Assembly: GCA_051362555.1 (NCBI GenBank)
Contig: CM120647.1
Span: 3,348,001-3,412,000, forward strand
Length of the DNA: 64,000 nt
Source: Lingula anatina
Taxonomy: Eukaryota > Animalia > Brachiopoda
Direction: 5' to 3'
Position 1 is the first letter of the stretch. Each line of letters starts with the position of its first letter. The notes beneath the pieces were generated by a model, which saw only the letters and a list, made by a program, of their open reading frames with translations, made no database searches and was not told where the DNA came from. The translations under genes and the position numbers were made by a program. Below are positions 25,385 through 58,129 of this stretch, in pieces.

Positions 25385-25722
25385 CTAAGTGAATGCCTGA
25401 TTGCTAAATGCATGTCTCCCAGGTGGAAATGAAGTCTCGTTCTCACTATCCGCCGAGGCATTAATGTCCTCATTGTCGCCGATGTCTCCTTCCGTGACGT
25501 ATTTGTTTGCCCCGACAGATGTCATCTGGTGTGTGTAGGCCATGGGGGACGACCCACGAGGATGTTCTGGCATTGAGCCGACTTTATATTTCTGTCCCCA
25601 TACACAGCGATAGGCAATAACAGCAGTAAGGCACAGTGCCACCACTCCACCAACTGCGCCTGCGCCGGCCTTGAAGCCCACCGTCTGGTACCATGGTTCT
25701 TGTGGGGACTTTACCACAGTCG
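25385..25722 (-). CDS. Last exon: transmembrane helix and ~75-aa cytoplasmic tail
   Basis: [20 protein letters not shown] followed by RCVWGQKYK; ends FSNQAFT*. Confidence 0.88.
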
Positions 25723-57300: not shown

Positions 57301-58129
57301 TGGGTTTTGACTTCGAAACACCTATATGATGGAACACAAGAAATTGAAATACATGTAATATGAAACAACATCGCTAATGTAAGTATTATCATTTACACAT
57401 GTACTTAAATAATTCAACGCTTGCTAAATGATAATTAAAGCAAAATGTCAAGATGTATGGCCAGAATCTTTTGTAAAAAGTTAATATTTTTCTACTCTGT
57501 TTTACAATGGGCCATGCATTGGACAAGCTAACCTTTACATATGACAAGTCACTGAGCTGCTAAGTTCCAGTAAGTACCTACCTGAGAACAGGAAGACCTT
57601 GACCCCAGATGAAGGTCAGTCGTGTCAAAGCTGACAATGAGCGGTTCTCCATCAGGAACGGTTGTTTCCGGCAGTTGGCACATCTTATACGAGGGCAGCG
57701 GGGAAGTTCTGTTGTAATATAAACCTGCTTTGTGGACATTAGATATCTGGACATTGTCCATTGCCAGGTCACCACCAAAGCTTCTGAAGGAAACCCCGTT
57801 GCCCATGCTATCCTCAATGCTACTATTCTTGATCGCCGCATGTCCAGTTATATCTCTGAGAAGAACACCATTACCGATGACATTTGTGATGTTCAGGTTA
57901 TCAAGCACAGGTGGGCTTCCACTAATCGATATGGCTGCAGTATCATTTGAGTGTGTCCCGATGTTAGGAAGACCAGCGAATTCGATGTCGACATATTGGA
58001 GATCACTTAAACCTGACACGGAGGAGTTAGTCGCCAGCTCTATCCCAGACCAGTACTTGGCTGTTTCGTTGGCAATCCCACGATAACCAGAGTAACCTGA
58101 GCACTGCAGCCACACGTCTTGACTGTGAA
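25385..58129 (-). CDS. Giant mosaic type-I membrane protein (Bark beetle/Anakonda-like + CBM14 + CTL + EGF + PSI + VWD/EGF + cadherin); 41 exons, about 4,178 aa visible, 5' end missing
   Basis: All 41 exons have AG acceptors, all 40 introns have GT donors, and phases chain consistently to the TAG at 25385-25387. The first visible exon starts inside an SRCR domain (HSQDVWLQC). Possible polyA signal at 25181-25186. Confidence 0.9.
26081..27070 (-). CDS. Exon (990 nt): EGF repeats, two cadherin repeats, Thr/Ser-rich stalk
   Basis: [37 protein letters not shown] and AEDGG cadherin motifs. Confidence 0.92.
27376..27545 (-). CDS. Exon: EGF-like repeats
   Basis: [10 protein letters not shown]...[24 protein letters not shown]. 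Confidence 0.9.
27839..28097 (-). CDS. Exon: EGF-like repeats
   Basis: [21 protein letters not shown]...CSGHGIC. Confidence 0.9.
28330..28482 (-). CDS. Exon: EGF-like repeats
   Basis: [24 protein letters not shown]. Confidence 0.9.
29274..29363 (-). CDS. Exon: EGF-like repeat
   Basis: [29 protein letters not shown]. Confidence 0.88.
29846..29935 (-). CDS. Exon: EGF-like repeat
   Basis: [25 protein letters not shown]. Confidence 0.9.
30687..30776 (-). CDS. Exon: EGF-like repeat
   Basis: [27 protein letters not shown]. Confidence 0.9.
31031..31274. repeat. Two (TA)n microsatellites (31031-31094 and 31230-31274)
   Basis: Directly visible. Confidence 0.95.
31285..31402 (-). CDS. Exon: post-VWD helical Cys segment
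   Basis: [28 protein letters not shown]. Confidence 0.85.
31845..32005 (-). CDS. Exon: post-VWD linker
   Basis: WRISTSF...SQAEMK. Confidence 0.82.
32301..32501 (-). CDS. Exon: VWD domain end
   Basis: [20 protein letters not shown]...FAES. Confidence 0.9.
32908..33047 (-). CDS. Exon: VWD domain
   Basis: RIDGLVQ...MIAIQYDT. Confidence 0.85.
33345..33540 (-). CDS. Exon: VWD domain
   Basis: [15 protein letters not shown]...VQVRFF. Confidence 0.9.
33855..33998 (-). CDS. Exon: EGF-like repeat and VWD start (GDPH)
   Basis: CFGNGDC...FWTGVCC...[11 protein letters not shown]. Confidence 0.9.
34245..34417 (-). CDS. Exon: Cys-rich/EGF-like segment
   Basis: [19 protein letters not shown]...[12 protein letters not shown]. 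Confidence 0.85.
34605..34738 (-). CDS. Exon: Cys-rich repeats
   Basis: [28 protein letters not shown]...DGTCYCPND. Confidence 0.85.
35062..35202 (-). CDS. Exon: Cys-rich repeats
   Basis: [13 protein letters not shown]...CPCHCADG...DGTCE. Confidence 0.85.
35463..35547 (-). CDS. Exon: start of Cys-rich repeats
   Basis: [28 protein letters not shown]. Confidence 0.8.
35813..36056 (-). CDS. Exon: unassigned region
   Basis: DPGVVSQSE...[10 protein letters not shown]...VKVSA; phase matches the exon at 42250. Confidence 0.8.
36319..36363. repeat. (GT)n followed by a poly-G run
   Basis: Directly visible. Confidence 0.9.
37400..39050. repeat. Foldback-like imperfect inverted repeat built from diverged ~130-150-bp subunits
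   Basis: CAGGAATCCTAG (38170) pairs with CTAGGATTCCTG (38293), and AATATAGGTCA with TGACCTATATT. GGGTGTGGCCGTCCCTGGGG-type motifs on the left face CCCCAGGGACAGCCACACCCC-type motifs on the right. Confidence 0.7.
39399..40860. mobile_element. 1,462-bp non-autonomous Tc1/mariner-type element nested in the TGT...ACA element
   Basis: Perfect 25-bp TIR CAGTGCCGCCGGAATGTCCCCTTAC; TA on both flanks. Confidence 0.88.
40998..41119. mobile_element. hAT-like MITE with 5-bp TSD
   Basis: CAAGCGGATCTAGG / CCTACATACGCCTG termini; TGCAT on both flanks. Confidence 0.65.
42250..42418 (-). CDS. Exon: unassigned region
   Basis: VTDVTHDVD...[15 protein letters not shown]...LKDLI. Confidence 0.8.
43061..43162 (-). 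CDS. Exon: unassigned region
   Basis: [34 protein letters not shown]; phase 0-0, GTAAGT donor. Confidence 0.72.
43391..43535 (-). CDS. Exon: unassigned beta-rich region
   Basis: YTEVNED...[27 protein letters not shown] donor. Confidence 0.8.
43823..43989 (-). CDS. Exon: unassigned beta-rich region
   Basis: [25 protein letters not shown]...YEALV. Confidence 0.75.
44342..44524 (-). CDS. Exon: unassigned region
   Basis: [17 protein letters not shown]...KKKAMFE. Confidence 0.75.
44779..44944 (-). CDS. Exon: unassigned region
   Basis: PIAVSP...[17 protein letters not shown]. Confidence 0.8.
45342..45573 (-). CDS. Exon: unassigned region
   Basis: DHVFKCLG...[19 protein letters not shown]...AMSF. 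Confidence 0.8.
45772..45969 (-). CDS. Exon: unassigned region
   Basis: [21 protein letters not shown]...VHVLK. Confidence 0.8.
46426..46542 (-). CDS. Exon: unassigned region
   Basis: HSILVTRDK...[20 protein letters not shown]. Confidence 0.8.
46969..47143 (-). CDS. Exon: unassigned region
   Basis: [16 protein letters not shown]...[12 protein letters not shown]. Confidence 0.78.
47451..47552 (-). CDS. Exon: Cys-rich unassigned segment
   Basis: [34 protein letters not shown]; phase 0-0. Confidence 0.82.
47924..48127 (-). CDS. Exon: PSI domain
   Basis: [28 protein letters not shown]. Confidence 0.9.
48388..48569 (-). CDS. Exon: two EGF-like repeats
   Basis: [28 protein letters not shown]...CKCQPGWQ. 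Confidence 0.9.
48803..48911 (-). CDS. Exon: C-type lectin-like domain, end
   Basis: EDGKCPLF...[15 protein letters not shown]. Confidence 0.82.
49169..49291 (-). CDS. Exon: C-type lectin-like domain, middle
   Basis: [17 protein letters not shown]...[10 protein letters not shown]. Confidence 0.8.
49445..49539 (-). CDS. Exon: C-type lectin-like domain, start
   Basis: [31 protein letters not shown]. Confidence 0.88.
49745..49948 (-). CDS. Exon: chitin-binding peritrophin-A (CBM14) domain
   Basis: [47 protein letters not shown]; phase 1-1. Confidence 0.85.
50357..51181 (-). CDS. Exon (825 nt): beta-helix repeats
   Basis: 322-aa ORF with VNASSNWWG; phase 1-1. Confidence 0.9.
51367..53373 (-). 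CDS. Exon (2007 nt): beta-helix repeats and CUB-like domain
   Basis: 668-aa ORF with [24 protein letters not shown]; phase 1-1. Confidence 0.92.
53800..53912. repeat. Intronic hairpin with 50-bp arms and a 13-nt loop
   Basis: TGAATTTTTTTGCACTATAGTTTAAATGCAC... is inverted at the right end with one mismatch. Confidence 0.9.
54535..56832 (-). CDS. Exon (2298 nt): beta-helix repeats, SRCR-like insert, degenerate CUB
   Basis: 767-aa ORF with NYWGT and [24 protein letters not shown]; phase 1-1. Confidence 0.92.
57051..57321 (-). CDS. Exon: CUB-like domain
   Basis: [14 protein letters not shown]...[17 protein letters not shown] donor. Confidence 0.88.
57582..58129 (-). CDS. Exon: SRCR end, parallel beta-helix, CUB start
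   Basis: ORF 57549-58160; TTTTCAG acceptor, GTAGGT donor. Confidence 0.88.

Follow-up and report, generated by a model that had tools for sequence, protein, structure and literature searches.

The stretch of DNA analysed here, referred to as the window, comprises 64,000 nucleotides (nt) of the brachiopod Lingula anatina (GenBank assembly GCA_051362555.1, contig CM120647.1, positions 3,348,001 to 3,412,000 of the forward strand) and carries on its minus strand, at positions 25385–58129, a 5′-incomplete gene of 41 exons encoding 4,178 residues and a stop codon. Judged from its sequence, the product likely belongs to an old and apparently undescribed family of surface-adhesion proteins. Exons were placed by hand, assembled by their splice signals, and joined by script, giving a coding chain of 12,539 nt from 58129 to the stop at 25385 with no internal stop codon, in which all 40 introns are GT-AG and phase-matched. 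The single phase-consistent spliced open reading frame of more than 4,100 amino acids proposed in an initial annotation was borne out, as was its order of modules, for which Pfam scanning of 24 open frames supports the beta-helix, CBM14, EGF, PSI, VWD, and cadherin assignments. Exon 1, which is entered in phase 1, starts with the last part of an SRCR domain, and in six of the seven full-length relatives that match it the alignment starts at residues 201–256. It appears that some 200–250 N-terminal residues, including the signal peptide, are missing from the visible gene model and that the complete protein would have ~ 4,400 residues; no upstream exon for the missing N terminus was found within positions 58000–64000.

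The visible protein opens with a scaffold of the Bark/Anakonda type. The rest of Bark-type repeat 1 (55838–58127, residues 1–604; this and all module coordinates below are on the minus strand) comprises the SRCR end, a beta-helix, a CUB-like segment (57680–57052), and further beta-helix, and repeat 2 (52316–55810) comprises a start motif (55810–55607), a degenerate SRCR (55567–55220), and beta-helix, both repeats being recognized by Pfam and by profiles. Repeat 3 (50357–52315), recognized by profiles and grouping in trees with Bark repeat 3, consists of a start motif (52315–52118), a CUB-like segment (51736–51374), and beta-helix. SRCR domains were scored against a profile built for this analysis, with shuffled sequences as controls. 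The repeat 2 SRCR reached 12 bits, a score matched by 0 of 197 shuffles, while repeat 3 showed no SRCR, as 193 of 196 shuffles scored as high. The CUB-like segments of repeats 1 and 3 passed the shuffle test (0/188 and 0/197, respectively), and that of repeat 2 failed it (24/190 as high). The SRCR/beta-helix/CUB units described earlier therefore stand as a type of scaffold, and an intact SRCR and CUB in every repeat does not.

Downstream of the repeats, exon 6 (49745–49948), a phase 1-1 symmetric exon, encodes a CBM14 chitin-binding module (Pfam E 4e-10; 40 bits against the Pfam cut-off of 22.1) that keeps its six cysteines, and exons 7–9 (48803–49539) encode a Bark-type C-type lectin-like domain (profile E 1e-19). 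The calcium- and sugar-binding motifs of C-type lectins are EPN or QPD together with WND, and these were absent from the domain in the alignment. Exons 10–11 (47924–48569) add two EGF modules and a PSI domain (Pfam). Exons 12–23 (35813–47552) encode ~ 660 residues predicted to be beta-rich and termed here region U. Next come cysteine-rich repeats with an EGF-like module (exons 24–28, 33901–35547; from the gene model), then a VWD domain followed by a cysteine-rich helical segment (31286–33900; Pfam VWD E 2e-07 on one exon), with a GDPH motif at 33882–33871 (residues 3172–3175). The EGF array (26895–31285; Pfam) had been put at about 11 modules, and its 60 cysteines make 10. Two cadherin domains (26205–26894; Pfam E 8e-29, two stretches) precede a Thr/Ser-rich stalk recognized by composition (25697–26204; 50% Thr plus Ser over 42 residues), and the gene model and tail comparison give a terminal segment (25385–25669) made up of a predicted membrane helix (25669–25607) and a ~ 75-residue tail that has an FxNxxF end motif and no ETAM. 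The protein carries 69 N-glycan sequons and is likely a single-pass type I membrane glycoprotein; motifs that we take to be calcium linkers are discernible in its first cadherin domain. Rfam returned no matches.

The nearest protein was L. anatina XP_023933231.1 (LOC106153054, uncharacterised), the model of which begins within repeat 2. This protein is collinear with the window protein over exons 3–41, with 62% identity over 3,332 aligned residues, and is its sister at 100/100 support; because it is only 62% identical, it is likely a paralogue. Exons 11 and 12 (48127–47451) and exon 27 (34417–34245) are 94–95% identical to the paralogue, as against ~ 55% in neighbouring exons, and their mean identities to eight outgroups are 44, 33, and 48%, with residuals of 2.2–3.3 standard deviations among 35 exons. 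At the protein level, these exons likely owe their similarity to gene conversion. Reads with differing letters were seen to accumulate on exons 11, 12, and 27 and on exon 37.

Transcription was followed in six raw-read RNA runs chosen by species label, three of which had next to no exon coverage. Three runs from one study gave exact joints for at least 7 of the 40 introns, namely 10/11, 14/15, 27/28 (cysteine-rich repeats), 29/30 and 31/32 (VWD and helical segment), 35/36 (EGF array), and 40/41 (stalk). The 10/11 reads could derive from the paralogue, while 14/15, 29/30, 31/32, 35/36, and 40/41 are likely gene-specific because the exons that they connect are only 36–74% identical to it. Reads that cross the exon 11/12 joint depart from the window at 14 letters and are nearer to XP_023933231.1, and both genes are therefore likely present in one species. 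As a rule, each RNA read shows several mismatches to the window, and the reads therefore stem from a diverged population. Two of these results count against the interpretation favoured here: 33 of the 40 junctions were without reads among the joints listed, and joint 22/23 (42249–36057) was among those absent, the bins of its flanking exons having a mean depth below 1 per strand.

Intron 22, which this joint would remove, is 6.2 kb long and contains an insert of 5,357 nt (36071–41427) bounded by 46-nt inverted repeats that are 96% complementary, together with subterminal repeats. A nested perfect inverted repeat of 27 nt lies inside it (39397–39423 and 40836–40862), no long open frame was found in it, and it is likely a non-autonomous DNA transposon. 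Minus the insert the intron would measure 836 nt, the other introns being 153–1161 nt, and its unusual length is thus due to the 5.36-kb insert. One interpretation of these data is that two neighbouring genes have been wrongly joined across the intron, as could be argued from the unlisted 22/23 joint and from database models that span just one half. To this we give almost no credence: the breakpoint would fall inside region U, which is unbroken in the paralogue and in relatives of six other phyla; the upstream half has neither a stop nor a membrane helix, and the downstream half neither a start nor a signal peptide; and the insert accounts for the length of the intron. The paralogue is contiguous across the intron 22 position, at its residues 2044/2045. 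The initial annotation's single gene is accordingly supported by the reading frame, by paralogue continuity, and by the insert, which together would constitute strong, though indirect, evidence.

A second interpretation holds that the gene in the window is a duplicate that has been weakened or is dying out, its splicing impaired by the insert and its function carried by the paralogue. The insert stops only 14 nt short of the exon 23 acceptor, read depth is low in addition to the three nearly empty runs, and the read pile-up is heavier on exons in common with the paralogue. This reading has a slim chance of being correct, given 12.5 kb of coding sequence without a stop or frameshift, canonical splice sites throughout, and gene-specific joints both upstream (14/15) and downstream (29/30, 31/32, 35/36, and 40/41) of intron 22; note, however, that the diverged population behind those joints may lack the insert.

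The relatives of this single gene were collected next. A search with the middle region of the paralogue matched 7 proteins, and a region U profile matched 256 at E ≤ 0.001 among 50%-identity representatives, the best 150 of which were listed. Of 44 database proteins with at least 1,500 residues, 19 combined the repeat motif of Bark with region U and VWD in a single chain. These long forms include some isoforms or alleles, and the 17 that are named cover seven phyla: Oscarella (sponge), Oculina (coral), Amphiura (brittle star), Branchiostoma, Owenia, Dimorphilus, Tubulanus (nemertean), and Lingula. The sponge record, which has 4,894 residues, the full layout, six cadherin stretches, and a ‘type:complete’ open-reading-frame header, is likely transcript-derived. 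The complete long forms of sponge, brittle star, and amphioxus have three repeats, and one amphioxus protein has four. Owenia, Oscarella, Dimorphilus, and Lingula each have duplicates of their own in the tree, and modules of the head have been exchanged in a lineage-dependent way, amphioxus having MAM and Lingula CBM14, with loss of SRCR as a further change. The protein had been called lineage-specific in the initial annotation, a description that does not hold for a backbone found in sponge, coral, brittle star, amphioxus, annelids, and nemertean; only the CBM14 exon is confined to Lingula.

CBM14 was present in 2 of 45 proteins, both from Lingula, and is inserted at a point where, in 12 other proteins, the lectin-like domain follows immediately on the beta-helix. 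In the paralogue, the module has lost two of its six cysteines and gives no Pfam match. Of the chitin tether envisaged earlier, the CBM14 module itself is real and a general role is not supported; as the module is Lingula-only and decayed in the paralogue, chitin tethering would be at most a recent accessory role. A separate observation concerns Haliotis rubra XP_046567358.1, in which four Bark-type repeat motifs occur with F5/8, SRCR, EGF, TIG, and CARDB-like domains; to judge from this layout, the Bark-type repeat is a mobile unit.

A published description of the long-form layout was not found when searching by family accessions and domain combination, in agreement with the initial view that no characterised protein has the whole combination; the Anakonda/Bark papers (Byri 2015, Hildebrandt 2015) may mention non-arthropod homologues. 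The accessible part of a coral skeleton proteome (PMC4890752) does not show this layout, and that of PMC10276166 contains nothing on conservation.

Region U matched no family in Pfam, the lowest E value for 7 members being 0.032, and no sequence of a solved structure at E up to 10. Structure models were examined for two relatives, P0035 (mean predicted local distance difference test score, pLDDT, 73.6, with a C-terminal half at ~ 50–60) and P0047 (mean pLDDT 87.2), rather than for the window protein. Both models predict with confidence a beta-rich N-terminal half and, with low confidence, a sheet of long strands after the furin site described below. Foldseek returned nothing at E ≤ 0.001 for them, and the top hits of a wide structural search (Z 6.5, root-mean-square deviation 8.4 over 96 aligned residues; Z 5.5, deviation 3.7 over 84) lay within background. 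Weak matches to phage baseplate barrels, porins, and pore-formers were dismissed as generic beta-sheet. The absence of a structural match does not establish a new fold. Atlas matches to region U were bacterial hypothetical proteins (0.91–0.92), which serve as a lead only. Outside the family, region U was also seen in a metagenome protein that combines it with VWD and a class 3 lipase domain, and in shorter proteins that begin with a hydrophobic, signal-like end. U-like exons were present in 17 metagenome loci.

The relationship of the long forms to Drosophila Bark beetle/Anakonda was then considered. In the accessible parts of the literature, Anakonda is described as having SRCR, CUB, beta-helix, and lectin-like domains in a triple-repeat ectodomain (PMC11698045, PMC5509417, PMC8006247) that adheres homophilically at three-cell vertices (PMC11698045, PMC5509417), and its C-terminal end as PDZ-binding (PMC5509417). 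What the long forms share with it is a unit of start motif, SRCR, beta-helix, and CUB that occurs three times and has a homologous lectin-like domain after it; in the Lingula protein the triple repeat is represented by two start motifs and the rest of the first repeat, and three full repeats are present in complete relatives. The differences are that the Lingula protein has CBM14 between repeat 3 and the lectin-like domain, that it has lost the SRCR of repeat 3, and that Bark runs from the lectin-like domain directly to the membrane, whereas in Lingula ~ 1,900 residues (EGF-PSI-U-Cys-VWD-EGF-cadherin) stand between. Moreover, the Bark tail exceeds 200 residues and ends in ETAM, an end found in three of three Bark tails and in none of 17 long-form tails, while the Lingula tail of ~ 75 residues ends in QAFT. 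Because it has no membrane helix directly after the lectin domain and no ETAM end, the Lingula protein is classed here as a relative of Bark and not, strictly speaking, as a member.

When 59 repeat ends were placed in a quick tree, built without lectin columns, the last repeats of 12 long forms and 6 Barks grouped together (Shimodaira–Hasegawa-like approximate likelihood ratio test 94), with the coral, nemertean, and one of the annelid last repeats falling outside. A careful tree of 32 rows, to which the lectin domain was added and from which nemertean, Dimorphilus, and Haliotis rows were left out, united the last repeats from 12 long forms with those from 4 Barks in one clade (99/97) and joined Bark repeat 1 to an amphioxus repeat 1 (97/89). 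From these groupings, the three repeats likely predate the split between Bark and the long forms, and the initial assignment of the scaffold to the Bark/Anakonda type is upheld in that both the repeats and the lectin-like domain are homologous. The long forms were a single clade in 0% of 200 bootstrap trees, with long branches flagged, and a Bark nested within the long-form family is favoured, but not proven. Counting against nesting, the approximately unbiased test did not reject the long forms as a clade apart from Bark (p = 0.31), so that Bark may instead be their sister group. Bark-type proteins without region U numbered 15, the 10 named ones all being from arthropods. The first homologue search was limited to 3,405 residues, and the third found only 6 Bark-type proteins and missed known long forms; the reach of the searches is thus limited, and that no short Barks were seen outside the arthropods is weak evidence. 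The Bark of arthropods is likely a long form that lost the whole stretch from the end of the lectin-like domain to the membrane, truncation being the simpler, though not proven, history.

The stalk of the long forms invites comparison with VWD proteins that are cleaved at GDPH. The GDPH motif is intact in 27 of 28 VWD-bearing sequences, the window protein included. Besides FCGBP, such proteins include MUC4, Mesh, and VWDE, and the likeness consists of a VWD with intact GDPH followed by EGF modules and a membrane anchor; the differences are the Bark-type head, the cadherin domains in the stalk, and the absence of NIDO, AMOP, TIL, and long mucin repeats from Pfam scans of relatives. According to the accessible part of one study, FCGBP is cut at GDPH between Asp and Pro, with the first strand released only on reduction, and a Gln at position 14 after the Asp partly aids cleavage (PMC10880436). 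A second processing site is suggested by a furin-type R-x-K/R-R motif at positions 352–373 of region U in 11 of 18 relatives; at this position the window protein has only RR (44410–44405), and the paralogue also lacks the full motif. The cadherin domains themselves, two in Lingula and up to 10 in a sponge relative, link the family to the cadherin superfamily; they differ in being membrane-proximal rather than terminal, in the short, unconserved tails, and in that the catenin-binding cytoplasmic domain of classical cadherins was not detected by Pfam on the last exon or in the paralogue.

These features can be combined into a scheme in which the protein would be a self-cleaving stalked receptor. 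Its triple-repeat head would be held far off the apical cell surface, where it could bind partner molecules or a matrix such as mucus, cuticle, or a chitinous lining. The precursor would cut itself at the Asp-Pro of the VWD, as FCGBP does, into two subunits that likely stay linked, a head of ~ 3,400 residues and a membrane-bound part with VWD, 10 EGF, 2 cadherin, Thr/Ser stalk, and helix; most relatives would likely be furin-cut in region U as well, allowing the head to be shed, and both Lingula copies would have lost this option with the full motif. The EGF and cadherin modules would act as a spacer of roughly 35–45 nm, based on general module sizes, and not as an adhesive tip; the septate gap measures 15–20 nm. 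Binding would fall to the triple repeat, probably to its own copies as reported for Anakonda, with the Lingula CBM14 contributing weak chitin affinity, and the tail would hold no junction scaffold and may carry a recycling signal. As the spacer would exceed the septate gap and the tail has no junction scaffold, an apical adhesion or matrix-binding role is favoured over scavenger or junction roles, a choice that we hold to be evenly balanced between right and wrong. According to the accessible parts of two papers (PMC4595640, PMC13425148), the shell of Lingula contains chitin, and the animal also has chaetae and, probably, a gut lining of chitin; the added CBM14 would suit these structures.

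The protein could alternatively be an organizer of tricellular or septate junctions that works like Anakonda, its stalk spanning a wider gap at the vertices. Its triple repeat and lectin-like domain follow the order seen in Anakonda and are the positional homologues of those in that protein, and with all 10 named short Barks coming from arthropods the long forms could serve other phyla. We regard this as rather unlikely, in view of the extra ~ 1,900 residues before the membrane, the lack of the ETAM PDZ motif in all 17 long-form tails, a repeat number that varies although the vertex model rests on three, and the poor fit of a 35–45 nm stalk to the septate gap.

It could also be a receptor for scavenging or pattern recognition, one that traps microbes or particles in mucus and internalizes them by endocytosis. 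SRCR, lectin-like, CBM14, and MAM modules in the head and lineage-specific duplications would be in keeping with such a role, as would the tail motif: FxNxxF/Y-type motifs are sorting signals (P-selectin/SNX17), and an aromatic-x-N-x-x-F/Y motif occurs in 4 of 17 long-form tails, that of Lingula included, and also in three of three Bark tails. It is missing, however, from the other 13 long-form tails, which as a set are unconserved and span 2–139 residues, some being shorter than 15; in the Lingula copy, SRCRs have degenerated or are missing, and no sugar motifs are present in the lectin-like domain. A scavenger function is therefore judged unlikely. Of the adhesion or pattern-recognition receptor initially suggested, adhesion is favoured and pattern recognition is weakened by the decayed SRCRs and missing sugar motifs.

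Several observations weigh against the self-cleaving adhesion receptor itself. The signal peptide lies outside the window, the majority of the relatives are gene models and not observed proteins, the residue at position 14 after the GDPH Asp is His in Lingula, and the candidate recycling motif is present in only four of the 17 long-form tails and also in the three Bark tails. In addition, no row with both VWD and cadherin was present among the rows listed from the Lingula shell proteome supplement, and attachment to the shell is therefore without direct support.

Other features of the window are mostly repetitive. A partial tandem copy of the exon 36 3′ end and donor, 87% identical, lies just inside intron 36 (29202–29264), with a few reads showing a back-joint there. 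Satellite arrays with 194-nt and 146-nt units, broken by repeated non-satellite blocks, occupy 1–13200, and a C-rich minisatellite with 9 copies of a 32-nt unit lies at 18819–19106. Broken remnants of a reverse transcriptase of a long interspersed nuclear element (LINE)-type element (59271–60634, plus strand; Pfam RVT_1, E 2e-13) and of a Tc1/mariner-type transposase (62844–63701, minus strand; Pfam DDE_3, E 5e-07) were identified. Short repeats at 61537–61800 and 41550–41920 show high RNA depth with many loose ends and are likely small mobile elements carried in other transcripts.

Taken together, these data slightly favour, on balance, a history in which Anakonda is a cut-down arthropod descendant of an undescribed, animal-old family that extends from sponges to amphioxus and has an adhesive triple-repeat head, a self-cleaving VWD-EGF-cadherin stalk, and a 660-residue region U of no known fold with bacterial look-alikes; the three-fold head would then predate its use at three-cell corners. 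Anakonda has been credited with a unique triple repeat, proposed to sense the geometry of three-cell vertices. The occurrence of those three repeats in long forms from sponge, brittle star, amphioxus, annelid, and Lingula makes the origin of that repeat testable. The results also add a further cadherin-bearing family, region U, and a clear case of a chitin-binding exon shuffled into an old receptor of a chitin-apatite-shelled animal.

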